Of a stretch of DNA of 64,000 nt, positions 7,640 to 21,885 are shown in pieces (position 1 is the first letter of the stretch; each line of letters starts with the position of its first letter). The position numbers and the translations under genes were made by a program. Where the stretch lies: positions 12,885 through 76,884 of the IMG/VR virus record IMGVR_UViG_3300043313_000346; one strand, written 5' to 3'. Below the pieces are notes generated by a model. That model was given only the letters and a program-made list of their open reading frames with translations, was not told the DNA's origin and made no database searches. Source of the stretch: a virus.

Positions 7640-8064
7640 GCGACGACGCCAAGGCGGGATGGGAAGTCGAAGGCTTCATCGAGCGGCTGACCCGGCGCGA
7701 TGACAGCAACAGCGAGCGGCTTGTGCTCGAAGCCGTCTCGCACTTGCGCGCGTTCTCGCGCGACTGCGACGCGCTGCGCGCCGCTCGCCATACCGACTCG
7801 CAGCGCATGGTCGCAATGGCTGATAACTACGAACGGCTCGACGACAGGGTGTCCGATCTCACCGAAGCGCTGCAGCGGATCGCGCAATGGGCCGACGCCT
7901 ATCCGCTCGCCGTGTTTCCCGAACCTGATCTAGCGAAGGCTGCAGCGGTGCTGCGCATGCACGGCATGACGATCGACGGCATCAGCGCGCACGTTGCCCG
8001 CCACGTCGTCGAGGGCGTCGGCAAGATCGCGCGCGAGGCTCTAGGGGAGTCCACCAATGGCTAA
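7636..8064 (+). CDS. hypothetical protein
   Basis: ATGA-coupled. Confidence 0.7.
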   Translation: MSDDAKAGWEVEGFIERLTRRDDSNSERLVLEAVSHLRAFSRDCDALRAARHTDSQRMVAMADNYERLDDRVSDLTEALQRIAQWADAYPLAVFPEPDLAKAAAVLRMHGMTIDGISAHVARHVVEGVGKIAREALGESTNG

Positions 8065-8837: not shown

Positions 8838-9190
8838 TGGATCACATCGACGCCATCGTGTTCGCGATCGAGGCTCTCGGCTTCAACATCGGCGACAACG
8901 ATCTTGAGCGGCGCGCGAAGGCGAGCTTCGTCGTGCAGGCGTTGACGCTGGTGGGATGCAAGATCGTCACGTCAAAAGAGATCGCGGATTTGATCGAGGC
9001 GCTGCGGCCGTTCACCGAAGTCCCGCCGCATTCTCCACCGGAGCGCAAGCTGTTGGTTGTCGATGCTGGTAATGGACCGTGGCACCTAAAACAAATCGCA
9101 TTCGACAACGCCCGCGCGGCGATAACCGCAGGCGCGCGCAATCCTGATCCGCCCGCCGATCATGGTTCGGTGATCCGGAAGAACCTGTGA
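8837..9190 (+). CDS. hypothetical protein
   Basis: TGATG coupling. Confidence 0.65.
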   Translation: MDHIDAIVFAIEALGFNIGDNDLERRAKASFVVQALTLVGCKIVTSKEIADLIEALRPFTEVPPHSPPERKLLVVDAGNGPWHLKQIAFDNARAAITAGARNPDPPADHGSVIRKNL

Positions 9191-11481: not shown

Positions 11482-11512
11482 GGCATGCTGACTCCGGTTG
11501 ATGGCGCGATGC

Positions 11513-11553
11513 TGTCACATGGTGTCGCAAGGCTATTATCACAAAATGTTACA
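11513..11553. promoter_or_regulatory. tandem operator-like sites
   Basis: TGTCACA-TGG-TGTCGCA (11513) and TATCACA-AAA-TGTTACA (11537). Confidence 0.6.
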
Positions 11554-11785
11554 TCGGTGCCATACGGCTTTCTTGAATCGCACTCGCTCAAAACCGTTCA
11601 AGATGTCCAGCATCCATCGCACCTAATGATTTTTTTCTGCGCGAGTTGTCGCTGTGCCACGCGGAGTCGCGTCGGCAAAAACGATCCGATTCCGAAAAGT
11701 TGAAAAGTCGATTTGCTATATTGCTCGTGTCGCAGTCAGAGAGCGACGGGCTGTTTGAAATGCAAAATCTGAAATGGAGACGAAC

Positions 11786-12046
11786 ATGGCGCAAGCCATC
11801 GACACGACGAACTATGTCTACCTTGCAATGACCGCGAACTTTTGGGCGTCCTCGAAAACGAGCGAGGAAGCTGCGGTGCGATCTCTTCGGGCTCAAGCCG
11901 GATCGTCACAGGTCACGAAGTATGGATGGGTCACCTATCACATCCATCCTGACTTCGAGGTCTGCGGGATCAACGGCGACGTGATGACGCCGATCGGTCA
12001 CAAGGCGATCAAGCTCACCGACAAGATCAAACGCAAGGCGGCATAA
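11786..12046 (+). CDS. hypothetical protein
   Basis: AAATGGAGA RBS. Confidence 0.75.
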   Translation: MAQAIDTTNYVYLAMTANFWASSKTSEEAAVRSLRAQAGSSQVTKYGWVTYHIHPDFEVCGINGDVMTPIGHKAIKLTDKIKRKAA

Positions 12047-12115
12047 AGCAAAGAGCCCGGGACGTGGACGCGTCCCGGGCCCCTCACTCGCAACGCAAGT
12101 ACATGGAGACCTAAC

Positions 12116-12616
12116 ATGCAGACCATACCACTACGCGAACGACGCCACCAGCAAGCGCTCAAGGATCGCGCCCGGCTGGAGCGACAACGCGACGACACGC
12201 TCGACAAGCTCAGCCGCATCGCCGCCAAGCTCAAGGCGGTGCGCCGATCGGTCGAGCGCTACGAGCGAACGCCGATGCACCCGGTGAAGCCTGAGCCTCT
12301 CGCGGTGACGATCTTCCGCGAGATGGCAAAGGACGCGCCCGCTGCATCGGTGAACGTCGAGCCGCCGGCGCCGACACCAGCGCCGCAAGCAGCCGCGCCA
12401 GTGCCCGCGCCGGCGAGCGTCGACGATGACATGCCGGACTTCCTTCGGCGCTCGAAGCCCGATGCCGTCGGTGAAGCGATCGCCGCTGAGCAGGAAGCGA
12501 GGCGCAAGGCCAAGGCGCACGGGCGCATCGCGACGCTGAAGGCCAAGAAAAGCGGCGCCACCAAGCAGATGCCGCTCGAAGGCAAGGCCGCGCTCGCCGC
12601 GATCCGGGGCGGATAA
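12116..12616 (+). CDS. hypothetical protein with Pro/Ala linker and DMPDFLRR motif
   Basis: ATGGAGA RBS. Confidence 0.75.
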   Translation: MQTIPLRERRHQQALKDRARLERQRDDTLDKLSRIAAKLKAVRRSVERYERTPMHPVKPEPLAVTIFREMAKDAPAASVNVEPPAPTPAPQAAAPVPAPASVDDDMPDFLRRSKPDAVGEAIAAEQEARRKAKAHGRIATLKAKKSGATKQMPLEGKAALAAIRGG

Positions 12617-12636
12617 AAAACCCGCGCTACCCCAGC

Positions 12637-12665
12637 AAAGCCGCCCTTCGGGGCGGCTTTTTCTT
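12637..12665 (+). terminator. rho-independent terminator
   Basis: AAAGCCGCCC-TTCG-GGGCGGCTTT followed by TTCTT. Confidence 0.9.
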
Positions 12666-12713
12666 GTGTGTTTTCAGCCGCTTGCCAAAGGCAAAAAAGA
12701 TGTGGCTGGCCTC

Positions 12714-12742
12714 TTGTGTCACATCATGTGACATGCCATATA
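12714..12742 (+). promoter_or_regulatory. sigma70-like promoter with a perfect palindromic operator over the spacer
   Basis: TTGTGT-N17-CATATA; TGTCACA-TCA-TGTGACA at 12717-12733. Confidence 0.6.
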
Positions 12743-12749
12743 CGTCTCT

Positions 12750-13134
12750 CGTTACTTGATTGGTTGCTCCCCTGCGGTGCCTTCGGGCGCTCACTTGACG
12801 AGGGGGGTCCGGCACCAGACCCGGTTGATTGATGAGCATCGCTCTCACAGCCGCACCGCTCCCCTCAGAAGGATCGGCTCAGTCACTGCCCGGGGTACCA
12901 GTAAAATGGCCACACCAATTTCACTGCAGAACATGCGGACGCAACGCGTCGCGCGAACACTGCAGCCACCTCCCCGACGAATAGCGGCGCGCACGCACGA
13001 TGCGCGCACGGTGCGAGGACAGACGACGCAATGGTCAAGAGCGCGAGGGCGCGGCCATGACGAAGACGACACGGTCAAGAGCACGAGGGTGCGACCCTGT
13101 TGATGCTGACACTGCGCGGCGCCACGCGCCGCAG
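12750..13134 (+). ncRNA. candidate structured leader / ncRNA
   Basis: About 390 nt with no convincing ORF; cUUCGg hairpin near 12776; imperfect direct repeat at 13021/13063; fragments of the cassette element. Confidence 0.35.
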
Positions 13135-13230
13135 TGACCACTGAAGAGCGGCGACCAGACGAAGGCGCGCCGCTTCACAGTGTTCATGCACTCGCGCCTC
13201 GCAACGGCGCGCCAACAAATGGAGAATGCA
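13135..13230 (+). repeat. conserved upstream structured element, copy 1
   Basis: TGACCACTG..GAGCGGCG..CGCCGCTTCACAGTGTTCATG..GCGCC-TCGCAAC-GGCGC..AAATGGAGA. Confidence 0.9.
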
Positions 13231-14256
13231 ATGACTGCTCTTCTGAACGAAGTTGAATGCACGATCGCGGAAGCGGCTGTGCTGCTCGAAAGGCAACTTG
13301 CCAAGGGCAAGCCCGTGATGATGTGGGGCGCGCCCGGGCTCGGCAAGTCGGCGATCGTCTGGCAGCTTGGCGCCAAGCAGGGCCGCAAGGTGATCGAGTA
13401 TCGCGCCAACCTGCGCGAGCCGGTCGACGTGCGCGGCATCCCGGTGCCCGATCTGGTGAGCGGCACGACACGCTGGCTTGTGCCGGAAGACCTGCCGAAC
13501 GCCGAGCGCGACGGCGAGTTCGGTTACCTGTTCCTCGACGAGATCAACACGGCGTCGCCGCAGATGATGGCGGTGCTGTTCGGTCTCGTGCTCGATCGGC
13601 GCATCGGTGACTACGTGCTGCCGGCTGGCTGGCAGATCATCGCTGCCGGCAACCGCGTGAGCGATCGCGCGGCGGCTCAACGGATGCCGACGGCGCTGCG
13701 CAACCGCTTCTCGCATCTGACCGTACTGCCCGACGTCAACGCGTGGGCGGTGTGGGCGAACGCGAACGGTGTGGCGCCTGAGATGGTGGCGTTCGTCCGC
13801 TTGCGGCGCGAACTGATCCACCGGATGCCGCGCGGCGATGAGAACGCATTCCCGACGCCGCGCTCGCTGACGGCGGCTGCGGAGTTCGTTGACGAGCCGA
13901 GCATCGCGCTGCGGCAAAAGCTGTTCGCCATGCACGTCGGCAATGACGTCGCCGGCGAGTTGAACGGCTTCATCGAGCTTTATCAATCGCTCGGTTCGCT
14001 CGACGACATCGTCGCCGATCCTGCCAATGCGAAGGTGCCCACCGAACCTTCGCAACTCTACGCGGTCTGCACCGGGCTCGCGCGTCTCGCGACGCGAAAG
14101 AACTGGTCGCAGATCGTGACCTATGCCGAGCGGCTGCGCGGCGAGCATCAAGTTCTGCTCGTGCATGACGCCGTGATGCGTGACCCGAAGCTGAAAGAGA
14201 CGTCGGCCTATTCCAAGTGGGCCGTCGCCAATCAGGGCGCGCTGATGCAATCGTGA
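13231..14256 (+). CDS. MoxR-like AAA+ ATPase
   Basis: Walker A GAPGLGKS, Walker B LFLDE, AAGN sensor, ALRNRF Arg finger. Confidence 0.92.
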   Translation: MTALLNEVECTIAEAAVLLERQLAKGKPVMMWGAPGLGKSAIVWQLGAKQGRKVIEYRANLREPVDVRGIPVPDLVSGTTRWLVPEDLPNAERDGEFGYLFLDEINTASPQMMAVLFGLVLDRRIGDYVLPAGWQIIAAGNRVSDRAAAQRMPTALRNRFSHLTVLPDVNAWAVWANANGVAPEMVAFVRLRRELIHRMPRGDENAFPTPRSLTAAAEFVDEPSIALRQKLFAMHVGNDVAGELNGFIELYQSLGSLDDIVADPANAKVPTEPSQLYAVCTGLARLATRKNWSQIVTYAERLRGEHQVLLVHDAVMRDPKLKETSAYSKWAVANQGALMQS

Positions 14257-14346
14257 GCAGTAAGGGCGGCGCCGTGTGCGCCGCCCCATAGTGCCCATGC
14301 ACTGCGCCGTCGCAACCGGCGCCAACCTTTCAAATGGAGATTCCCA
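14254..14346 (+). repeat. conserved upstream structured element, copy 2
   Basis: GGGCGGCGC/GCGCCGCCC stem; GCGCCG-TCGCAAC-CGGCGC; AAATGGAGA. Confidence 0.9.
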
Positions 14347-15243
14347 ATGAACGCGAAAACGAAAGTGATCGCCTCGCCGCTGTCGCGGAAGGCAACGCTG
14401 GTGTCGGTCGACATCAGCCAATGGACGGCACGCAAGCTCGACAAGCGGGTGACGGACAAGGTCAACCGCGAGCACAACGCGGCCGACGACGCCGGCCGCT
14501 ATCACAAGCTGCTGATCGAGGCCAAGCGGCTCGAAGCGATCAACTCGCTGGTCGCGCAGGCACGCCGGCTGCACTACACGATGACGAAGCCGTGGGCCGA
14601 CGAAGGCTTGCGCATCCTGCCGAACAAGCTGCACGAAAAGTTCGCCAGCGAGTTTCGCAAATTGAAGCGCGAGTTCGACGTGGCTGCTGATGACTTCTGC
14701 CGCGAATATCCGACGTTCATTGCCGAGCGCAAGAAAGCTCTCAACGGCTTGTTCAACGCGTCGGACTATCCGCCGGCCGATGAGATCAGGAGCAAGTTCC
14801 GGCTGACGACGAAGACGTTCCCACTGCCTGAGTCGGATGACTTTCGCTCGGACGTGCTCGACGCGGACACGGTCGAAGACATCAAGCGCGAGCTTGCCGA
14901 GACGAACGAAGCGGTGCTTGCCGATGCGATGAAGCACACGGCCAAGCAGATCACCGAAGTCGTCGGGCACATGGCCGAGAAGCTGAAGGCGTACAAAAAG
15001 CCGGGCAAAGGTTCGCGCAGCTTTTTCTCGCACACGCTGGTCGAGAACGTGCGGCAGCTTGCCGAGCTTCTGCCGGCCTTCAATCTCGACAACGATCCGG
15101 CGCTCGACGCGATCGCCGATCGCATCAACAAAGAACTTTGCGTCGAAGACGCAGAGACACTGAGACACGACGACAACGCGAGGAAGTCGGTGGCCAAGAG
15201 CGCCGACGACATCCTGCGCGATGTCGAAAGCCTGCTCGGCTGA
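14347..15243 (+). CDS. helical protein of the AAA/VWA module (DUF3150-like)
   Basis: Lies between the ATPase and the VWA-peptidase; family call is by resemblance only. Confidence 0.65.
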   Translation: MNAKTKVIASPLSRKATLVSVDISQWTARKLDKRVTDKVNREHNAADDAGRYHKLLIEAKRLEAINSLVAQARRLHYTMTKPWADEGLRILPNKLHEKFASEFRKLKREFDVAADDFCREYPTFIAERKKALNGLFNASDYPPADEIRSKFRLTTKTFPLPESDDFRSDVLDADTVEDIKRELAETNEAVLADAMKHTAKQITEVVGHMAEKLKAYKKPGKGSRSFFSHTLVENVRQLAELLPAFNLDNDPALDAIADRINKELCVEDAETLRHDDNARKSVAKSADDILRDVESLLG

Positions 15244-15290
15244 GAGCGCGCCCGGCCGCAACCCGGGCGCTTTTCAAAATGGAGATGACA
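15241..15290 (+). repeat. conserved upstream element, copy 3 (short form)
   Basis: GCGCCCGG-CCGCAAC-CCGGGCGC then AAATGGAGA. Confidence 0.85.
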
Positions 15291-16730
15291 ATGCAGACGA
15301 TCGACACGGTGACGGCACAAGCCGCCGAGCGCGTGAGCAAGGCGCGCCAAGAACTGATCCTTGAGCGCACGTTCTACGGCGTGCTGGTCAGCCAAGTCGA
15401 GGCCAAGCCGTCGCGCGACTTCCCGACGATGGCGACGAACGGCCGGACGCACTTTTTCAATCCGGACTTCATCGCCTCTCTGTCGCAGGTCGAAGTGCTC
15501 GGCGTGCAGGCGCACGAGACCGAGCACGATGCGCGCCGCCATCACACGCGGCGCGGTAACCGCGATCCGCAAGAATGGAACGTGTGCTGCGATCTCGCGA
15601 TCAACCCTGACCTGATCCGCGCGGGCTTCAAGCTGCCGGAAGGCGCCCTGCTCGACTGGCGCTTCGAGGGCATGTCAGCCGAAGACATCTATCGGACGCG
15701 CGAGCTTGAGCGGCAGCCGCCGCAACAGCCGCAGCCCGAATCGGACAAATCGGACAAAGCGGACAAAGCGGACAAATCGGACAAATCGGACAAATCGGAC
15801 GGAACCGATGGAACCGACGGCGACGATGCCGACGGCGACGAAGGCGCTGGCGAGGGCGCTGGTGAAGCCGGCGAAGAGCCGGGCGACACTGGCACCGGCG
15901 AAGGCGCCGGCGACGCTGGCGAGCCCGGTGAGGGCACCGGCGAGGGCTCTGGCGAGGGCGAAGGCTCGGACGCTGGCAGCGATGCCGGCGAGGCCAAGCC
16001 GGGGCCGTCTTCGGGCGATCCCGGCCGCTGCGGCGAAGTGCTCGACGCGGCGGTTGATGCCGCCGAGCGGGCCGACGTCGACGCCAAATGGGAACGTGTC
16101 GTGCGCGAGGCCGCAAGCCTCGCACGCAAGCGCGGCGACGCTCCCGGGCACGTGTCGCGCGAGATCGAGCGGAACGATCATCCCCCGCAAGACTGGCGCG
16201 AGACTTTGCGTGCCTTTTTCGACGGCGGCGCGGTGACCACCGAAACGTGGTCGCGTCCGAACCGGCGCTTCATCGGCGGCGGGCTCTATCTGCCCGGCCG
16301 CGAGCGTGACGGCGTCAACCGCGTCGCCATGCTGGTCGACACGTCCGGTTCGATGGATGATGTCGCGCTTGCGGCGATCGGCGTCGAAGTGCAAGCGGCG
16401 CTCGATGAGAACATCATCGACGAGCTTGTCGTGATCTACGGCGACACGCGGGTGACGCGCGTCGACACGTATCGCGGCGGCGACGAGATCGAGTTCGATC
16501 CGCGTGGCGGTGGCGGCACCCGGTTGATGCCGCTGTTCGATCACGTGGCGAACGAAGTCGATGCTTCGCTGATCGTGTGCTTCACCGACGGTGAGCACGA
16601 GATCACCAGCGCGCACGCTGAGCCGGCTTGCCCGGTCCTGTTTGCGATCACCGGCTTCCCGCAGGACGTTCGCCACTACGTCGCGAATGCACCGTGGGGC
16701 GCCACCGCGATCGACGTCGGATCGCACTGA
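15291..16730 (+). CDS. putative metallopeptidase with VWA domain (DUF2201-like)
   Basis: TMATNG, HETEH (HExxH), acidic Gly-rich linker, MIDAS DTSGS, GGGGT, FTDG. Confidence 0.9.
   Translation: MQTIDTVTAQAAERVSKARQELILERTFYGVLVSQVEAKPSRDFPTMATNGRTHFFNPDFIASLSQVEVLGVQAHETEHDARRHHTRRGNRDPQEWNVCCDLAINPDLIRAGFKLPEGALLDWRFEGMSAEDIYRTRELERQPPQQPQPESDKSDKADKADKSDKSDKSDGTDGTDGDDADGDEGAGEGAGEAGEEPGDTGTGEGAGDAGEPGEGTGEGSGEGEGSDAGSDAGEAKPGPSSGDPGRCGEVLDAAVDAAERADVDAKWERVVREAASLARKRGDAPGHVSREIERNDHPPQDWRETLRAFFDGGAVTTETWSRPNRRFIGGGLYLPGRERDGVNRVAMLVDTSGSMDDVALAAIGVEVQAALDENIIDELVVIYGDTRVTRVDTYRGGDEIEFDPRGGGGTRLMPLFDHVANEVDASLIVCFTDGEHEITSAHAEPACPVLFAITGFPQDVRHYVANAPWGATAIDVGSH
15741..15800 (+). repeat. 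9-bp coding tandem repeat (T/G)CGGACAAA, about 6.7 copies
   Basis: Encodes SDK/ADK repeats in the linker. Confidence 0.9.
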
Positions 16731-16815
16731 CCACTGCAGGGCGGCGTCGCAAGGCGCCGCCTCACAGTGTTCATGACGAACACCCGGCCCGCAACGCCGG
16801 ATCACAAATGGAGTA
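16728..16815 (+). repeat. conserved upstream structured element, copy 4
   Basis: TGACCACTG..GCAA loop..CACAGTGTTCATG..CCGGC-CCGCAAC-GCCGG..AAATGGAG. Confidence 0.9.
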
Positions 16816-17220
16816 ATGACAATGAAAAAGCTTGGTGGAGTTCTGATCATCATCGTCGGCCTGATCTGGCTGAGCAACGGCAAGCCCGCCGACACGACGC
16901 CGGCATCGCCGTGCAAATCCGATTGGACAAAATGCACCGACAACGCCGACATGGCGAACAACTTCGGCGGCTGGTCCGGCGTGCAATATGACTGCAAAAA
17001 ACAGGCGGAAGAACTCGCCAAATACGGCACGCCAGAATGGCCGTGGTTCGCCTTCTCATCCTTCCGCCCCGGCAGCAACTACAGCACCGGCACCGTCACG
17101 GTGATCGAGCCCGATGCCAAATTCCAGAACGGCTTCGGCGCGATGGTGCGCTCGCGCGTGGTCTGTGAATACGATCTGCGCAGCAAGAAGGTGACCAACG
17201 TCGACATCAGCGCGCGATGA
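16816..17220 (+). CDS. exported / membrane-anchored Cys-containing protein
   Basis: N-terminal KK plus hydrophobic stretch; QNGFGA motif. Confidence 0.8.
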   Translation: MTMKKLGGVLIIIVGLIWLSNGKPADTTPASPCKSDWTKCTDNADMANNFGGWSGVQYDCKKQAEELAKYGTPEWPWFAFSSFRPGSNYSTGTVTVIEPDAKFQNGFGAMVRSRVVCEYDLRSKKVTNVDISAR

Positions 17221-17309
17221 GCACCACCGAGCGGCGCTTCGGCGCCGTTCCATAGTGCCCACGACGGACACTGCCGGCGCAACCGGCGCATCAAATGGAG
17301 ACTTTCAAA
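17218..17309 (+). repeat. conserved upstream structured element, copy 5
   Basis: GAGCGGCGC-TTCG-GCGCCGTTC; GCCG-GCGCAAC-CGGC; AAATGGAGA. Confidence 0.9.
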
Positions 17310-17519
17310 ATGGCGAATCTCTACACCTACGAATGCCGCGCTTGCGGCTTCGCTCAAGTCTTCCGCGAAGACAACAGCATGCATTGCCCGCACTGCCGCG
17401 CGTGGCCGATGCGCGAGGCGCTGCCGAGCGTCGACGCGATGCTCGCGACGATCGACACCGTGATCGGCTGCGATGATACCGAGATGGCCGACAAGGCAAC
17501 CCGGAGGGCAGCACGATGA
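17310..17519 (+). CDS. small Zn-ribbon protein
   Basis: YECRAC...CPHC. Confidence 0.7.
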   Translation: MANLYTYECRACGFAQVFREDNSMHCPHCRAWPMREALPSVDAMLATIDTVIGCDDTEMADKATRRAAR

Positions 17520-17683
17520 GCCGGAAGACCGAAAGCAAGAAGGCCGCGCGCGTGCTGCGCGAAGTCTTCGACGCCAAGCTGCCAGTGCCCGGCGTGACCA
17601 CGCGTGATCGCGACGCGGCGCTGTGGCTGGCGATCACGATCCTTGAAGCCCGCGCGCAAGATGCAGACAGTGAGGAAGGATAA
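17516..17683 (+). CDS. hypothetical protein (55 aa, not in ORF track)
   Basis: GGAGG RBS, ATGA coupling; MSRKTESKKAARVLREVF... Confidence 0.6.
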   Translation: MSRKTESKKAARVLREVFDAKLPVPGVTTRDRDAALWLAITILEARAQDADSEEG

Positions 17684-17686
17684 AAA

Positions 17687-18103
17687 ATGAAACATCTGAC
17701 CAAGGCACAGGTAGCAACGCGCGACGAACTGATCGCCGCGCTGCGCGGGAAAGACAAGGCGATCGATGATGCCATCATCGAGATCAACAACAAGATCGAC
17801 GAAGTCAACGTGCTGATCGAAGAGAACCTCAAGCCCGCGATCGACGACTACAACGGTGCGCTCGGCGATCTCGAAGAACTGCGCAATGAGATCGTCGGCC
17901 AGATGGACGACTATGTTAACGCGCGCTCTGAGAAGTGGAGCAACAGCGATGCCGGCGCGAACTATTCGTCGTGGAAGGACGAATGGGAAGGCATCGACAT
18001 GAGCCCGCTCGACGACATCGAGCCGCTTGCACATCTCGAAGCATCGGACCCGGCACACGCCAACGAGTTCGAAGCGCTGTCGAGCGAGGTTCAAGAAGAC
18101 TGA
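17687..18103 (+). CDS. acidic helical hypothetical protein
   Basis: GAGGAAGG RBS; D/E-rich. Confidence 0.8.
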   Translation: MKHLTKAQVATRDELIAALRGKDKAIDDAIIEINNKIDEVNVLIEENLKPAIDDYNGALGDLEELRNEIVGQMDDYVNARSEKWSNSDAGANYSSWKDEWEGIDMSPLDDIEPLAHLEASDPAHANEFEALSSEVQED

Positions 18104-18202
18104 GTGCTGCCAGAGCGGCGCGGGACAACTCGCGCCGCTTCACAGTGTTCATGCTGAGCACTCCCGCCGCAACGCGGGCAAAAATCCAAATGGAGAAAAA
18201 CG
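18101..18202 (+). repeat. conserved upstream structured element, copy 6
   Basis: GAGCGGCGCG..CGCGCCGCTTCACAGTGTTCATG; CCCGC-CGCAAC-GCGGG; AAATGGAGA. Confidence 0.9.
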
Positions 18203-18550
18203 ATGAAGTATCTACTGCCTCTTGCCGTCGCGCTTGCAATGACATCCGGCGCGAATGCCGGCTACACCGCCGGCGAGCTATTGAAGGAATGCAAGGCCGA
18301 CTCGAAGAAAGCGGCTTGCGCGACCTATGTGACGGCTACATGGGATACATTCGAGGCACTGGCTTGGACTCATAAAGAGCTTGTCATTGCCAACATCTGC
18401 ATCCCGCACGGCATCACGGTCGTGCCGGCCGAGATGATCAAGCTCGCTGAAACGCGGATTCAGGAACAGAAGGCGACGCCGGATATGTCCGCTGCGGCGG
18501 TGCTGCTTGCTGGCCTGCGATCCAAGTTCAATTGTTTCGATCGACGCTGA
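18203..18550 (+). CDS. secreted Rap1a/Tai4-like immunity-family protein
   Basis: Signal peptide; TAGELLKEC...ACATYV...D...ICIP...AA.VL..L...FNC Cys pattern. Confidence 0.65.
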   Translation: MKYLLPLAVALAMTSGANAGYTAGELLKECKADSKKAACATYVTATWDTFEALAWTHKELVIANICIPHGITVVPAEMIKLAETRIQEQKATPDMSAAAVLLAGLRSKFNCFDRR

Positions 18551-18626
18551 TCACTGCAGAGCGGTGCCAAATCTGGCGCCGCTTTTCATGCCGGTCGCAA
18601 CCCGGCTCAACAAATGGAGAACTGAA
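18548..18626 (+). repeat. conserved upstream structured element, copy 7
   Basis: TGATCACTGCAGAGCGG..CCGCTT; GCCGG-TCGCAAC-CCGGC; AAATGGAGA; lacks CACAGTG. Confidence 0.85.
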
Positions 18627-19280
18627 ATGAAGACGCTGAAATGCGTCGCGCTCGCTGCCGCACTGCTCGCCAGTGCTTCGAGCGCGCACGCTGCAATGAA
18701 GGCCTACCAGACATCCGGCCTTTGGTCCGCGAATGCCGGCACGGCCAACGACGGCACGCCGATGTGCTCGATGAGCATCCAAGACAAGGAACGCGCGGCC
18801 TTCATCAAGTGGCAGGCGGGAAGCGAAAATCTGTTCGTGCAGGTTTATAAGTCAAGCTGGAATATCCCGATCGGCACAACGATGCCGATGACGATCCAGT
18901 TTGATCGCGCCGAGCCGTTCAAGGGGACCGCGACATCGATTCCCGGTGGCAACGGGCAGATGATCGAAGTGTCTCTCAAAAACGAGGAAGGCAGCACGAT
19001 CCCCCGGTCGTTCATGGAGGAATTCGCATCGGCGGTGAAGATGTACTTCATCTTTCCCGGCGGCAACGAAACGCTATGGTCCGCACCGATGGAAGGCTCG
19101 CGCATCATCGCCGGATCGTTTGCGAAATGCGTGATCGACTATTCCAAATATGCGACGCCCAAGACGCAGCCGCACAAGGGCGGTGGCGGCGGCGGGGCGA
19201 CGCAGCCGCACAACAGCACCCCGGCTGAGCCGGTGGCGCCACCACCACTGAGCGGCAGCGCCAAACGCAACGACATCTAA
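18627..19280 (+). CDS. secreted hypothetical protein
   Basis: Signal peptide ending in AHA; Gly/Pro-rich tail. Confidence 0.8.
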   Translation: MKTLKCVALAAALLASASSAHAAMKAYQTSGLWSANAGTANDGTPMCSMSIQDKERAAFIKWQAGSENLFVQVYKSSWNIPIGTTMPMTIQFDRAEPFKGTATSIPGGNGQMIEVSLKNEEGSTIPRSFMEEFASAVKMYFIFPGGNETLWSAPMEGSRIIAGSFAKCVIDYSKYATPKTQPHKGGGGGGATQPHNSTPAEPVAPPPLSGSAKRNDI

Positions 19281-19283
19281 AGG

Positions 19284-19383
19284 TGACCACTGCAGAGCGG
19301 CGTGCCACAAGCGCGCCGCTCGACAGTGTTCATGCGAACACTCGCCCGCCGCAACCGGGCGCAAAAAAATGGAGAACCTTACA
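19284..19383 (+). repeat. conserved upstream structured element, copy 8
   Basis: TGACCACTGCAGAGCGGCG..CGCCGCTCGACAGTGTTCATGCGAACACT; CGCCCG-CCGCAAC-CGGGCG; AAATGGAGA. Confidence 0.9.
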
Positions 19384-19614
19384 ATGACGATAAAGTCCCT
19401 CATCCTGACGGCGGCGCTCTTGCTCGCCGGCCCGCACATGCTGCGCGCCGATGACGCCAAGGGCGCGGCCGATGACGCATCCCGCGAATGGAGTCCGATC
19501 GAGGTTGTCTACTTCTGCAATCTTCCTCTGGCCGAAGCCAAGATCGAGAACTGCACGGCAGCGCAGCCGAAGCGACAGCGACAAGCGCGCTTGCGCAAGA
19601 AGGTGATCCGATGA
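19384..19614 (+). CDS. small secreted hypothetical protein
   Basis: Signal-peptide-like N-terminus. Confidence 0.65.
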   Translation: MTIKSLILTAALLLAGPHMLRADDAKGAADDASREWSPIEVVYFCNLPLAEAKIENCTAAQPKRQRQARLRKKVIR

Positions 19615-20021
19615 AACCCACCAAGCGCGAATGCGGCGGCTGCACGCTGTGCTGCAAGTTGTTGGCTGTGCCGGCGATCGAGAAGCCGCAAGACAAGTGG
19701 TGCAAGCACTGCACCATCGGTGTCGGCTGCGCGATCAACGGCAGCGAGCAGCGACCAGAGGCTTGCGGCCTGTTCGATTGCCTCTGGCTGCAAGGCTACG
19801 GCGACGACAACATGCGGCCCGACAAATCGAAGGTCGTCATGGGCATGACGTCGGACGGCAAAAGCCTCGTGCTCTATGTCGATCCGTCGCGGCCGGAAGC
19901 GTTCCGCGAACCGGCGATCGACAAGACGATCGACAAGCTGATCGCGAACGGCATGAAGGTGTTCGTCGTATGCGGCGACAAGCGCCGGATGATCTCAAAC
20001 CAAAATGGAGAACCGACATGA
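19611..20021 (+). CDS. CxxCxxCC (YkgJ-like) Cys-cluster protein
   Basis: CGGCTLCC...C..C...GC.I...RPEAC..F.C.W. Confidence 0.85.
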   Translation: MKPTKRECGGCTLCCKLLAVPAIEKPQDKWCKHCTIGVGCAINGSEQRPEACGLFDCLWLQGYGDDNMRPDKSKVVMGMTSDGKSLVLYVDPSRPEAFREPAIDKTIDKLIANGMKVFVVCGDKRRMISNQNGEPT

Positions 20022-20263
20022 CGAACGAAGAGAAAGACCTGCTGCGCCGAATCGCAACGGTGCTGCAACAGCCGCGCAATCGCTTCGGCTGCATTCAAGG
20101 CGGGGCGTCGCACGCGCGCGACGCTGCGCCGGCTGATCTGGTGAAGCGCCTGCCGCACGGCGGCGTCGACGCTGCTGATCAGTGCGCCATGCTCCTGCAG
20201 TCGCTGATCGGCGATCCGGTGATGTCGATCGGCGACATGGGCAACATGAGGACTCGGGCATGA
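20018..20263 (+). CDS. hypothetical protein
   Basis: AAATGGAGA RBS. Confidence 0.65.
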   Translation: MTNEEKDLLRRIATVLQQPRNRFGCIQGGASHARDAAPADLVKRLPHGGVDAADQCAMLLQSLIGDPVMSIGDMGNMRTRA

Positions 20264-20919
20264 CCGACATTTGGCCCGTGATCCATCTCTCAACCGTCGA
20301 CAAGCTCACGGTCGAGAACGCCAGCATGGCCGCGCGCTGCGGCTGTCCCGGCGTGTTTCTCATCTCGATGAGCGGCTACGACGACGCGGTCGATCCTGCG
20401 GCGGCGCTGATCCGGCGCGAAGTGCCGGGGCTCAAGATCGGCATCAACCTGCTGACCAAGTCGCCATCGTGGGCGGTGTGCCACAGCATGAACCAAGGCT
20501 ATGACGCGACATGGTCCGACTTTGCGTGGCAGGGCACCGGCGTTGATGCCTACATCGAGAAGGCCGGCGTCGATCACAAGTTCTTCGCCGCCGTCGCGTT
20601 CAAGGGCGAGACGCACAACGAGCCGGACCCGCACGCGAGCGCGCGCGAGGCCGTGGCGCGCGGATTTATTCCGATGACGAGCGGCAGCGGCACCGGCGTC
20701 ACCGCGCCGTTCGAGAAGATCGAGCGGCTGCGCAAGGCGATCGGTCCCGCCGCGCCTCTCGCGATGAGCGGCGTGCATCCACCGCACGCCGATCGGTTGG
20801 TGCCGCTGGTGACGCACTTCCTCGTCGCCACGTGCATCAGCCGGGACTTCTACACGTTCGATGAAGCGATGCTGCAATACTTGATCGGCAAGACTGCCGG
20901 CGCTTCTGTTGTTGCCTGA
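20260..20919 (+). CDS. BtpA/SgcQ-like TIM-barrel protein
   Basis: PVIHL, IGINLL, VAFKG, TSGSGTG, SGV and LVAT motifs. Confidence 0.7.
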   Translation: MTDIWPVIHLSTVDKLTVENASMAARCGCPGVFLISMSGYDDAVDPAAALIRREVPGLKIGINLLTKSPSWAVCHSMNQGYDATWSDFAWQGTGVDAYIEKAGVDHKFFAAVAFKGETHNEPDPHASAREAVARGFIPMTSGSGTGVTAPFEKIERLRKAIGPAAPLAMSGVHPPHADRLVPLVTHFLVATCISRDFYTFDEAMLQYLIGKTAGASVVA

Positions 20920-21139
20920 ATCAAAATCCCCGGCCGAGCTTCACGCTCGACCGGGGACTCTTGCTCGTGCGATCGCAACTTCGGCAACGAGCCTCGCGAT
21001 CGGACCAAATGGAGAAAGCCCCGATTCGCGAGTGGGTGTCATTTAAGCGCACTTGGAACTTTTTTCAACTTTTGGCCGCTTCGAAGGCACGTGCGGTCTT
21101 CATCGCTTTTGCTTCAATAGCTTGGGGCTGGAAGCATCA

Positions 21140-21188
21140 TGTAACAAGTTGTGACAAATTTTTGCGAACGCCCAACGGAGGTTAGAAT
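21140..21188 (+). promoter_or_regulatory. operator plus putative promoter of the first XRE gene
   Basis: TGTAACA-AGT-TGTGACA at 21140-21156; TAGAAT at 21183. Confidence 0.6.
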
Positions 21189-21224
21189 TTCGACAGGCAA
21201 AAAATACAGTTTCCCAAGGCGGCT

Positions 21225-21449
21225 ATGCGAAGACGAACGGCTCAATTTGTTAGACTCGCGCGCGCTAAGCTCAAGATGACACAAGCAGAATTTGCGAAAC
21301 GGCTTGGGCTCGAACGTCGCAGCATCTTGCGATACGAGAAGGGCGAACCGTTGCCACCGACGGTGTACTTCGCGATCAAATTTCTGGTCGCGCGTGACAG
21401 GCTCAACAAGCAACGAGCCAAAGAGCGGATCAACAAAAGAGCCAATTAA
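21225..21449 (+). CDS. XRE-family HTH regulator, paralog 1
   Basis: ARAKLKMTQAEFAKRLGLERRSILRYEKG. Confidence 0.88.
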   Translation: MRRRTAQFVRLARAKLKMTQAEFAKRLGLERRSILRYEKGEPLPPTVYFAIKFLVARDRLNKQRAKERINKRAN

Positions 21450-21624
21450 AGCGCTCTGCCCTCCCCTTCTCTAGCTTCCTTCCCCTCCCCAAAGCTGTGC
21501 AAGAACTTGCACACCTTCAAAGGTGTTGCGGTGCGACCTTGCGCACTCACGCGGCTTAGTGACATCTTATGACTCGCAAATGCCGGGAGCCCCCGGAAAA
21601 ATACCTGCGATGAAAAGAGGCGAG

Positions 21625-21885
21625 ATGACTACGACGGACTTCGCTACCGACACGATGACTCCAATGAAGAGCACTGCAGGCTTCGTGAAGCGTGCGCGTG
21701 CGAAGCTCCAGATGACTCAGGGTGAATTCGCTGAGCGTCTCGGGCTCGAACGCCGCACCATCATAAGATACGAGAAAGGCGAGCCTCTGCCTCCGACGGT
21801 TTACTTCGCAATCAAGCATCTGGTCTCACGTCATAAGCTCAACAAGCAAAGAGCCAAAGACCGAGCGACCGCCAAGGAAGACTAA
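21625..21885 (+). CDS. XRE-family HTH regulator, paralog 2 (start uncertain)
   Basis: ARAKLQMTQGEFAERLGLERRTIIRYEKG. Confidence 0.88.
   Translation: MTTTDFATDTMTPMKSTAGFVKRARAKLQMTQGEFAERLGLERRTIIRYEKGEPLPPTVYFAIKHLVSRHKLNKQRAKDRATAKED

Follow-up and report, generated by a model that had tools for sequence, protein, structure and literature searches.

Within one gene array, a temperate soil phage repeats the same structured RNA, an intergenic element of approximately 95 nt, between successive genes. The window, by which we mean the whole stretch of 64,000 nucleotides that was analysed, comes from the 76.9-kb IMG/VR genome of this phage; it contains eight coding-strand copies, all on the + strand and all within the one array. 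The parts run, 5′ to 3′, in the order stop codon/strand A, hairpin P2, strand B, strand C, hairpin P4, the conserved context AAATGGAGA of the Shine–Dalgarno sequence (SD), placed 5-8 nt before the ATG, and start codon. B pairs either with A (helix P1) or with C (helix P3), and this A/B/C switch is present in only six of the eight copies, being absent from copies 3 and 7. The features are as follows.

About 12920-12968: additional A/C-like motifs in the leader.
13135-13233, + strand: copy 1, the leader copy, with no annotated gene upstream; A 13135-13143, P2 13146-13175, B 13178-13186, C 13188-13192 (weak), P4 13194-13210, SD 13217-13224; start 13231 of the AAA ATPase gene.
14254-14349, + strand: copy 2, whose TGA is the stop of the ATPase gene; A 14254-14262, P2 14264-14286, B 14289-14297 (TAGTGCCCA), C 14299-14303, P4 14304-14322, SD 14332-14339; start 14347 of the DUF3150 gene.
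15241-15293, + strand: copy 3, truncated to P4 and SD, with stop TGA; P4 15248-15270 (loop CCGCAAC), SD 15277-15284; start 15291 of the DUF2201 gene.
16728-16736, + strand: copy 4, strand A (TGACCACTG), whose TGA is the stop of the DUF2201 gene.
16739-16762, + strand: copy 4, hairpin P2.
16765-16773, + strand: copy 4, switching strand B (CAGTGTTCA), partner of A (P1) or C (P3).
16778-16783, + strand: copy 4, strand C (GAACAC).
16784-16800, + strand: copy 4, hairpin P4, loop CCGCAAC.
16806-16824, + strand: copy 4, conserved SD context AAATGGAG and the start codon of the next gene.
17218-17312, + strand: copy 5; A 17218-17226, P2 17229-17250, B 17253-17261 (TAGTGCCCA), C 17266-17272, P4 17273-17287, SD 17293-17300; start 17310 of a Zn-ribbon protein gene.
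18101-18205, + strand: copy 6, in which A-C pairing is also possible; A 18101-18109, P2 18113-18140, B 18143-18151, C 18155-18162, P4 18163-18178, SD 18188-18195; start 18203 of a Rap1a-like protein gene.
18548-18629, + strand: copy 7, a natural deletion form without B and C; A 18548-18556, P2 18558-18585 followed by TTTTCAT, P4 18590-18606, SD 18612-18619; start 18627.
19284-19386, + strand: copy 8; A 19284-19292, P2 19295-19321, B 19324-19332, C 19336-19342, P4 19343-19361, SD 19367-19374; start 19384.
20917-21015, + strand: a degenerate terminal element, 3′ of the last gene of the array, with stop TGA, GC hairpin, CGCAAC motif and AAATGGAGA at 21007, but no ORF following.

The first-pass annotation placed the start of copies 2-7 exactly on the in-frame TGA of the upstream gene, and this proved correct; in copy 8, the true stop is an in-frame TAA (19278-19280) two codons before the element TGA, which lies in frame behind it. 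The truncated form of copy 3 was also found in two related loci, L011 and L012, in which the region of the terminal element is conserved as well.

Copies from relatives were collected by a covariance model search of related IMG/VR soil-phage contigs, giving about 70 distinct copies across about 20 contigs, with three to eight copies at each related locus and the gene strand used in every case. A search of the whole window against Rfam 15 gave no matches at gathering score and, at E values up to 5 over 11500-21500, weak chance-level matches only, none of which overlapped an element. No known riboswitch aptamer in Rfam 15 matches the element, and the presence of eight copies in one operon argues against ligand sensing.

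All of the pairings previously listed for the two alternative helices were found in the sequence. P1 is formed by TGACCACTG and CAGTGTTCA in copies 1, 4 and 8, with eight of nine positions paired and a single C·U mismatch. P3 is AGTGTTC/GAACACT in copy 8, AGTGTTCA/TGAGCACT in copy 6, GTGTTC/GAACAC in copy 4, AGTGC/GCACT in copy 2, AGTGT/GCACT (one G·U) in copy 1 and AGTGCCC/GGACACT (one mismatch) in copy 5. The family consensus is TGAnCACTG for A and A-AGUG-UUCA (CAGTGTTCA) for B, and because positions 2-8 of B are common to both helices, P1 and P3 are mutually exclusive, as had been claimed.

All four helices covary across the family. In P2, a GC-rich hairpin, 94.7% of cells are paired, with compensatory changes at all 10 pairs; in P4, a variable GC stem with the conserved loop YYGCAAC (YCGCAAC in the window copies), the value is 91.8%, with compensatory changes at all five. 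For P1, measured on about 50-70 distinct copies from related phages, 85% of cells are paired, compared with 19-62% when the partner is slid, and the covariation score reaches 0.211, whereas shuffles give 0.140 and none of 500 is as high; its pair 11-52 occurs as A-U in 27 copies and as G-C in 26, with two copies unpaired there. The corresponding values for P3 are 74% paired, which is an underestimate because two alignment registers coexist, and a score of 0.259 against 0.110, again with none of 500 shuffles as high. Where B varies, the A and the C of that same copy vary to match it, and these own partners outscore swapped ones (z = -7.0 for P1 and -7.6 for P3); with 13 divergent representatives only, z was -4.3 and -5.7, respectively, and none of 20000 permutations was as good. 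A change in B is compensated in A and C alike at L110:7016, L014:5404, L013:3453, L103:3704 and L108:7868. Counts of G·U against A·C on the coding strand are 69:7 in P2 and 7:1 in P4, whereas the switching helices show no G·U excess (29:25 in P1, 24:27 in P3). Strong conservation of unpaired bases is confined to the GCA in the P4 loop, an A preceding B, and the SD; the AGTG core of B is at least 95% conserved, beyond what pairing alone requires. The covariation and partner-swap tests establish that the two helices are real and that both are under selection, and the family is a candidate new RNA switch, whose two exclusive folds both appear, from these comparisons, to have been kept by evolution within the phage clade.

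Thermodynamic prediction places P1 and P3 close in energy (median ΔΔG -0.65 kcal/mol; 36 of 54 copies within 2 kcal/mol). Copy 1 strongly favours P1 (ΔΔG -6.5), and the lowest-energy fold of copy 6 is a third helix, of A with C, with seven Watson–Crick pairs. The barrier between the two states along the direct path is about 8-9 kcal/mol, which would give sub-second to second exchange, similar to the interval between ribosomes.

The main rival to the explanation that we prefer, set out below, is that the element senses ribosome termination: a ribosome on the UGA would cover A and melt P1, B would flip to C, and the changed fold would relay the translation status of the upstream gene by altering the translation of the next cassette or a nuclease site. 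We consider this rather doubtful, although several observations speak for it. Of 63 copies, 40 have the upstream stop at base 1 of the element and 57 have it within -10 to +8 nt, and the element TGA is in frame far above the chance expectation of one in three. The distance from the TGA to the start of P2 is 10-12 nt in 59 of 71 copies, so that a ribosome with UGA in its A site would unwind exactly P1 and halt at the base of P2, given the footprint and helicase geometry reportedly described by Takyar, Hickerson and Noller in 2005. When the first 13 nt were occluded in predicted folding, P3 formed in copies 1, 4, 5, 6 and 8; in copy 2, the remaining sequence refolded differently. The near-isoenergetic states and a barrier that implies exchange on a scale similar to the inter-ribosome interval also fit, and RNA-unfolding coupling over at least 50 nt is known, for example in rpmI-rplT and MS2 (PMC12548453). 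However, 12 copies without a long upstream ORF ending within 12 nt, array-leader copies included, retain P1 and P3, which are no weaker there than elsewhere and carry private compensatory changes, and most leader copies lack an SD-preceded short ORF ending at the TGA. The TGA is also retained where it is not the stop codon, so its constraint reflects, at least in part, pairing with the TCA of B rather than purely a role as a stop. The earlier proposal that a terminating ribosome flips the RNA is partly supported, by geometry, energies and occlusion, but there is no support for the ribosome as a necessary trigger. The proposed relay to the downstream gene is not supported either: in thermodynamic prediction, the unpaired probability of the SD is 0.39 in the P1 state and 0.38 with A occluded (p = 0.85), that of the whole ribosome-binding site (RBS) is 0.57 and 0.55 (no significant difference), and all downstream genes have their own good SD with good spacing. 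A terminator scan found none in the elements, neither P1 nor P3 being one, and a U run follows a hairpin only in the deletion copy 7 and in orthologues of copy 3; a promoter consensus scan of 13135-19386 found no promoter-like site, sigma-70-type included. The element might still be a portable sensor of upstream translation, which each terminating ribosome would switch from P1 into P3 for roughly a second, so that its time-averaged fold would report upstream translation load and decide what becomes of the next cistron through cleavage, decay or factor binding. This is unlikely in our judgement; if true, it would constitute a new class of ribosome-operated RNA switch, without RBS masking or a terminator, that travels with shufflable cassettes.

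Nearly all related loci retain the AAA/DUF3150/DUF2201 trio, and the genes after it were found only in the window and its near-twin L010, each still headed by an element. These two loci differ by exactly one ORF-plus-element unit, L010 carrying a chimeric element, and the observed junction of this indel adjoins the SD and start codon, not B. The turnover of genes at the elements is of a cassette type, and the elements would mark shufflable cassettes.

Two further explanations would make the switching helices incidental or place them in DNA. A, B and C could be three copies of one motif (TGAACACTG; forward, reverse, forward) for a trans-acting factor, such as a stoperator-type DNA-binding repressor, an RNA-binding protein or a small RNA targeting the conserved AGUG core, with the helices a by-product. 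The excess conservation of that core, the lack of G·U excess in P1 and P3, the extra motifs in the leader and the parallel change of A and C in some copies (L096:7900) would fit, but within one phage the copies differ in B and each is matched by its own A and C, a copy-specific compensation predicted by base pairing and not by one protein recognizing one motif. With pair 11-52 switching cleanly between A-U and G-C, all copies on one strand, and P2 and P4 clearly RNA-level, we regard this explanation as highly improbable. The least probable of those considered is that the element primarily serves recombination, as attC-like folded single-stranded DNA or as a PeSL-like patch of homology, to shuffle cassettes, its hairpins mattering in DNA and not in RNA. 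Cargo genes do turn over among relatives while elements remain, the indel and chimeric element in L010 speak for it too, and A/P2/B recall the attC layout (outer inverted repeat, unpaired spacer, inner repeat, variable tip). Nevertheless, sequence inspection found neither attC core; an integron attC was rejected because the consensus of A and that of B fit neither RYYYAAC nor GTTRRRY, and a bottom-strand attC fold because the coding-strand G·T pairs of P2, in 69:7 excess over A·C, would become A·C mismatches. In addition, the L010 junction lies away from B, P3, P4 and the SD have no attC counterpart, the elements lack the promoter of PeSLs, and covarying helices are not needed for homologous recombination.

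The best explanation, which we favour tentatively, is that the element is an RNA with two states that acts at cistron junctions in processing, stability and insulation, and marks shufflable cassettes as well. In one state, P1 would be stacked under P2, so that the upstream cistron would end in a single long, irregular hairpin; once A was taken from B, B would snap onto C, and the downstream cistron would be headed by P3 and P4, directly before the always-open, strongly conserved SD context. The removal of A could be permanent, by an endonuclease cutting where P1 meets P2, as happens at the RNase III sites of phage T7, or transient, by a ribosome terminating on the UGA. The primary role would be to define, process or stabilize both neighbouring cistrons at the mRNA junction, each shufflable cassette being insulated with a standard leader, and RBS masking would not be the job of the element. 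We infer that both states are populated in vivo; the change would presumably be triggered by one of these routes, with processing or stability as its probable output. The junction role is favoured by an RBS equally open in both states and by the lack of promoter or terminator consensus in the elements, as well as by the single-strand use, the covariation, the close energies and the cassette turnover described above; moreover, because the junction of leader and first gene is a junction too, it predicts that ORF-less copies keep both helices, which a purely ribosome-driven switch does not. Against it, the P1 + P2 composite is at or below the usual RNase III length, the tight abutment with the in-frame TGA as stop is more naturally explained by a ribosome-linked function, two near-isoenergetic helices are not required by a junction or insulator alone, and copies 3 and 7 work without B and C.

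The RNase III sites of T7 and T3 (R0.3, R0.5, R1.1 and others) resemble the element in being irregular hairpins that carry an internal loop and recur as related copies between most cistrons of an early polycistronic phage mRNA, the leader/first-gene junction included; in T7, the hairpin remains on the upstream product as a 3′ stabilizer. The element shares the sense-strand intercistronic position, every copy extending from a stop codon to a start codon on the strand of the genes. A T7-type site, however, has about two helical turns (at least 20 bp) of irregular double-stranded RNA with an internal loop, whereas the P1 + P2 composite is shorter (median 17 bp, range 11-21, with 2×2 to 3×3 loops; 4 of 54 copies reach 20 bp), and RNase III cleavage of the element is putative. 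The T7 sites are also without a competing helix for the 3′ strand, a conserved-loop hairpin or a fixed SD module, all of which the element has.

In RNA-unfolding translational coupling, as in MS2 coat-lysis/replicase, E. coli rpmI-rplT and f1 gene VII-IX (reviewed in PMC12548453), and as would hold for the element, a finishing upstream ribosome opens a helix whose 5′ strand ends that ORF, across an intergenic distance of tens of nucleotides; the stop positions given above place the upstream ribosome over one helix strand. In these systems, the downstream SD or start is masked by the helix that is opened or by its alternative, whereas thermodynamic prediction for the element shows no such sequestration and unchanged RBS accessibility, and the element, unlike those cases, is a portable repeat at many junctions. 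With leader-peptide attenuators (trp, erm, cat) it shares the three-strand logic of 1:2 against 2:3 with a common middle strand and, as proposed here, selection of the 2:3 helix by a ribosome covering strand 1. It differs in having neither terminator nor SD-masking helix, and its upstream ORF is a full-length gene rather than a sensing peptide, leader copies mostly having no short ORF; a transcription attenuator (terminator/antiterminator) was rejected, as the elements contain no intrinsic terminator (GC stem and U run).

The PeSLs of T4-like phages likewise combine an intergenic stem-loop with SD and start codon, flank small variable genes and coincide with insertions, deletions and replacements among close relatives, as we found here. 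They are built around a sigma-70 early promoter, and their stem-loops are simple terminators without alternative helices (PMC2839356, PMC4122927), whereas a consensus scan found no promoter between stem-loop and SD in the element. Finally, the SAS of cluster K mycobacteriophages, a 13-bp consensus (GGGATAGGAGCCC) lying 3-7 bp before the start (PMC3203893), and the associated ESAS share with the element an asymmetric, conserved SD-core sequence a few bases before the ATG of non-structural genes, in one orientation, with conservation exceeding what 16S pairing explains and, in some cases, an upstream inverted repeat. The context AAATGGAGA differs from the SAS consensus in sequence, the logic of position and orientation being the same; and, whereas RNA-type compensation was not seen in the ESAS repeats (PMC3203893), the helices of the element all covary strongly.

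The intergenic element is a new structured RNA family at cistron junctions, in which two competing helices that share one strand are both under selection. It is ~95 nt long and occurs in the window as eight copies (copies 1–8), all on the plus strand and all confined to a rightward gene array at ~13.1–20.9 kb. The record to which the array belongs, a 76.9-kb IMG/VR virus rated complete by CheckV and covered by the window from base 12885 to base 76884, encodes a tyrosine integrase, a capsid–protease fusion, a tail lysozyme, tail-fibre proteins and paired XRE regulators; the integrase, the capsid and tail genes and the paired regulators together indicate a temperate tailed phage. A consensus scan found neither a sigma-70-like promoter nor a terminator consensus within the array. 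In the element, strand B can pair with strand A (helix P1) or with strand C (helix P3), and P2 and P4 are constant hairpins. The features, in window positions or in 5' to 3' order along the plus strand of the element, are as follows.

12637–12660, upstream of the array: strong terminator
Head of the array: genes for an AAA_5/MoxR-like ATPase, a DUF3150 protein and a DUF2201 metallopeptidase–vWA protein
Later array genes: small, several with signal peptides; one Rap1a-like and one Zn-ribbon protein
Element, strand A: TGAcCACTG, starting with the TGA
Element, hairpin P2: GAGCGGCG...CGCCGCTC, tip variable
Element, strand B: CAGTGTTCA
Element, strand C: GAACACT, after a 4–5-nt spacer following B
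Element, hairpin P4: variable GC stem, loop YCGCAAC
Element, SD context: AAATGGAGA, then ATG 5–8 nt further on

Copy 3 consists of P4 and the SD only, and copy 7 lacks B and C. In copy 7 (18548–18629) a U run follows straight after the GC hairpin (P2-TTTTCAT), as it does in the copy 3 orthologues of two related contigs (L011:10015–10088 and L012:9986–10074; P4-TTTTTT), and to judge from their sequences these forms without B and C look like weak intrinsic terminators within the array. Beyond the last gene of the array, a degenerate terminal element (20917–21015) retains a TGA, a GC hairpin, CGCAAC and, at 21007, AAATGGAGA; no ORF follows it, and the region is kept in L011 and L012. A weak relative of the element (model E = 0.01) lies at 12044–12118, in the small operon that precedes the array; here CACTCGCAACG and ACATGGAGA come between a terminator-like hairpin and the gene at 12116. 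Copy 1 is preceded by a long non-coding leader (12714–13134), not conserved in L011 or L012, that contains additional A/C-like motifs at ~12920–12968 (CACTGCAG and GAACACTGCAG) and at its end a perfect hairpin (13109–13135, CACTGCGCGGCG-CCA-CGCGCCGCAGTG), which mimics a fused A–P2–B and whose last bases overlap the copy 1 TGA.

Loci retrieved via the ATPase were searched with a covariance model of the eight copies. The element was present, in three to eight copies per locus and always on the gene strand, in every locus with an ATPase at least 60% identical, and was not detected at E < 1e-3 where the ATPase identity was 49% or lower. Three further contigs came from a second model and from a motif scan of IMG/VR, and the total reached ~70 distinct copies. 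Rfam gave no match to the element at gathering or permissive thresholds, and the cultured-phage databases contained no DNA relative, only AAA ATPases of <36% identity. In bacterial genomes the ATPase relatives reached at most 42% identity, none of them close, and hence no host prophage was found. Soil, rhizosphere and sediment metagenome contigs from 12 studies contained at least half of the sampled words of the stretch; among the sequencing runs listed by sampled-word match, none with the stretch was an RNA run. Within each phage of the clade the SD context hardly varies, and phages have contexts of their own, for example GGAGTCAC in L013, L014 and L102, a pattern suggestive of concerted evolution among the copies of one genome. 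In every L012 copy (7897–8002, 9024–9126, 11978–12082 and 12621–12720) the SD forms the loop of a short hairpin, GGAAAU-GGAG-AUUUCC, with a predicted unpaired probability of 0.82–0.99. The P4 loop in copies from L013, L014, L096, L102 and L105 is CUUGCAA(A)C and includes the self-complementary hexamer UUGCAA, so that kissing of P4 loops between copies on one mRNA is conceivable, as is docking of the GCAA loop of P4 on the conserved GCGGCG base of P2.

The constant hairpins were paired in 94.7% (P2) and 91.8% (P4) of alignment cells, with compensatory changes at every pair of both, and the excess of G.U over A.C combinations (69 versus 7 in P2, 7 versus 1 in P4) identifies them as RNA helices on the coding strand. 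RNAalifold, applied to the eight copies, recovered these two hairpins and missed both P1 and P3, as expected of two helices that compete. The alternative pairings listed in the first-pass annotation were all present in the sequence. Counted on an alignment from a model without P1, P1 was paired in 85% of cells, compared with 19–62% for slid partners, and gave a covariation score of 0.211 against 0.140 when shuffled (0 of 500 shuffles); at its outermost informative pair, 27 copies have A-U, 26 have G-C and two are unpaired. P3 was paired in at least 74% of cells, a lower bound since two registers were left in the alignment, and scored 0.259 against 0.110 (0 of 500). An alignment-free test in which partners were swapped between copies gave the same picture: the A:B duplexes averaged −7.18 kcal/mol with their own partners and −5.79 with swapped ones (z = −7.0), the B+C hairpins −7.32 and −5.64 (z = −7.6), and none of 20000 permutations was as good as the own partners. 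With only the 13 representatives that differ by >20%, z was −4.3 and −5.7, respectively. In individual copies, one change in B is compensated on both the A and the C sides: the B variant CGATGCTCA of L110:7016 is matched by CATCG and by GAGCGTC, CGGTG of L014:5404 by CAGCG and by GAACGCC, TAGTGTGC of L013:3453 by CACACTA and by GCACACT, and TTGATGC of L103:3704 by CATCAA and by GCATC. Because both helices use positions 2–8 of B they cannot coexist, and the mutual exclusivity that the first-pass annotation had proposed thus holds for two helices that both covary. The AGUG core of B is at least 95% conserved, as expected of a switching strand under double constraint.

The predicted thermodynamic ensemble divided the six full copies between the P1 and P3 folds, with probabilities (P1/P3) of 0.70/0.28, 0.18/0.75, 0.32/0.53, 0.20/0.67, 0.01/0.95 and 0.95/0.06; in copy 6 a third fold, A:C, had the lowest energy. 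When the first 13 nt were occluded, mimicking a ribosome on the stop codon, P3 was predicted in copies 1, 4, 5, 6 and 8, and copy 2 refolded otherwise. With each state forced in 54 copies, the median energy of the P1 state minus that of the P3 state was −0.65 kcal/mol, and 36 of the 54 lay within 2 kcal/mol. We do not claim a tuned balance, as the standard deviation of 2.4 is about that expected for two independent helices of ~7 kcal/mol. The direct-path barrier between the states had a median of 8–9 kcal/mol, a heuristic upper bound, which suggests exchange within ~1 s; a long-lived kinetic trap or a translation memory is therefore unsupported.

As noted in the first pass, the upstream gene ends in frame on the element TGA in copies 2–7; in copy 8 the real stop is a TAA two codons before the element TGA, and copy 1 has no annotated gene upstream. 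Of 63 copies near which a long upstream open frame ends, 40 have its stop at base 1 of the element and 57 have it within −10 to +8 nt. The element starts with TGA in 57 of 71 copies, and P2 begins 10–12 nt past it in 59 of 71. By established ribosome geometry, a ribosome with this stop in its A site would open P1 and abut P2. That a terminating ribosome would flip the RNA is consistent with this geometry and with the P3 folds predicted on occlusion; against it, 12 copies, among them the leader copies at the heads of the arrays, lack a long ORF that ends within 12 nt and yet keep both helices at no less strength, with mean energies of −7.9 (P1) and −7.2 (P3), compared with −6.7 and −6.5 in the 53 abutting copies, and with private compensations. 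Copies in which the TGA does not serve as the stop retain it too, and it pairs with the TCA of B. A short, SD-preceded ORF ending on the TGA of the leader copy was found only in the window (26 codons, 13057–13137, with a GAGGG box upstream); such a leader peptide is absent from most relatives. The further proposal, that termination on the TGA relays translation status to the next cistron, found no output: the predicted unpaired probability in the two states was 0.39 versus 0.38 for the SD and 0.57 versus 0.55 for the whole RBS, and on these predictions the idea that the switch acts by masking the SD was rejected; the consensus scan showed no terminator to be involved. The classic RNA-unfolding form of translational coupling (reviewed in PMC12548453) is therefore not applicable. 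The ribosome relay, the best account of the stop-codon geometry, thus has neither an output nor a universal trigger, and we consider it unlikely.

The mechanism that we tentatively favour is a cistron-junction module, in which P1 and P2 would close the upstream cistron; removal of A by cleavage, or transiently by the terminating ribosome, would let B refold onto C, and P3 and P4 would then head the downstream leader, before an always-open RBS. Such a module accounts for the leader copies, for the unchanged RBS and for the resemblance to T7 RNase III sites, and its weak point is the shortness of the composite P1+P2 helix (median 17 bp). That A, B and C form a recognition motif for a trans-factor is very improbable, and that the element is a DNA recombination site is about as improbable; both readings sit badly with compensation that differs from copy to copy and with an excess of G.U on the coding strand. 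No universal phage-encoded trans-factor was found within the array, the gene for a 69-aa Zn-ribbon (FmdB-like) protein (17310–17519) being confined to the window, L010, L011 and L012.

Several other identities were rejected. A sigma-54 promoter, with C as the −24 box and TTGCA of the P4 loop as the −12 box, is contradicted by a spacing that varies between 5 and 8 nt, the lack of GG and the covarying stems. A hammerhead-like core was ruled out by inspection (CUGCAGA rather than CUGANGA, and no GAAA after the stem) and by Rfam, and integron attC identity by the lack of its core motifs. Read-through or bypass fusion of adjacent ORFs was dismissed because each downstream ORF starts from an SD and ATG of its own, signal peptides are encoded behind these starts, and the element contains in-frame stops.

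The ATPase, DUF3150 and DUF2201 trio is kept in nearly all related loci, and the genes downstream of it, each headed by an element, occur only in the window and in its near-twin L010 (98% identical). L010 carries one additional ORF-plus-element unit (L010:12853–13285, against window 18101–18205), with its junction beside the SD and start codon, and the extra element is a chimera with a copy-5-like 5' half and a copy-4-like P4 and SD. This unit and the turnover of genes at the elements indicate that the elements also serve the shuffling of genes as patches of homology, a role described for the PeSLs of T4-like phages (PMC4122927); unlike a PeSL, the element has no promoter by consensus scan. 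The cargo also includes a Rap1a-like immunity protein with a signal peptide (18203–18550). The DUF2201 gene contains seven tandem 9-bp repeats (AATCGGACA and variants) at 15730–15809, which code for a repetitive acidic/lysine linker and are followed by imperfect GC-rich repeats up to ~15960. Two tandem XRE-type HTH genes (21225–21449 and ~21630–21885) share ~80% DNA identity, each with its own upstream region.

Covariation in two mutually exclusive helices is the signature of a functional RNA switch, and to our knowledge few such cases exist beyond riboswitches and attenuators. Here the element recurs at almost all gene junctions in an accessory operon of a phage, with the upstream stop codon inside its 5' strand. 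Should processing, decay or the binding of a factor read out the flip, each exchangeable phage gene would receive a self-contained expression module, a natural counterpart of the insulator parts of synthetic biology and a compact test system for ribosome- or cleavage-driven RNA refolding; even as a processing site and nothing more, the element would establish a new family of structured RNA and, in uncultured soil phages, an architecture of gene cassettes. The closest known systems are the T7 intercistronic RNase III sites, RNA-unfolding translational coupling, leader-peptide attenuators, PeSLs and the mycobacteriophage SAS/ESAS (PMC3203893). For each family open to a full test, the element lacks one or more of the defining features, and we rate it, with no Rfam counterpart, as a structured intercistronic phage RNA with alternative helices.
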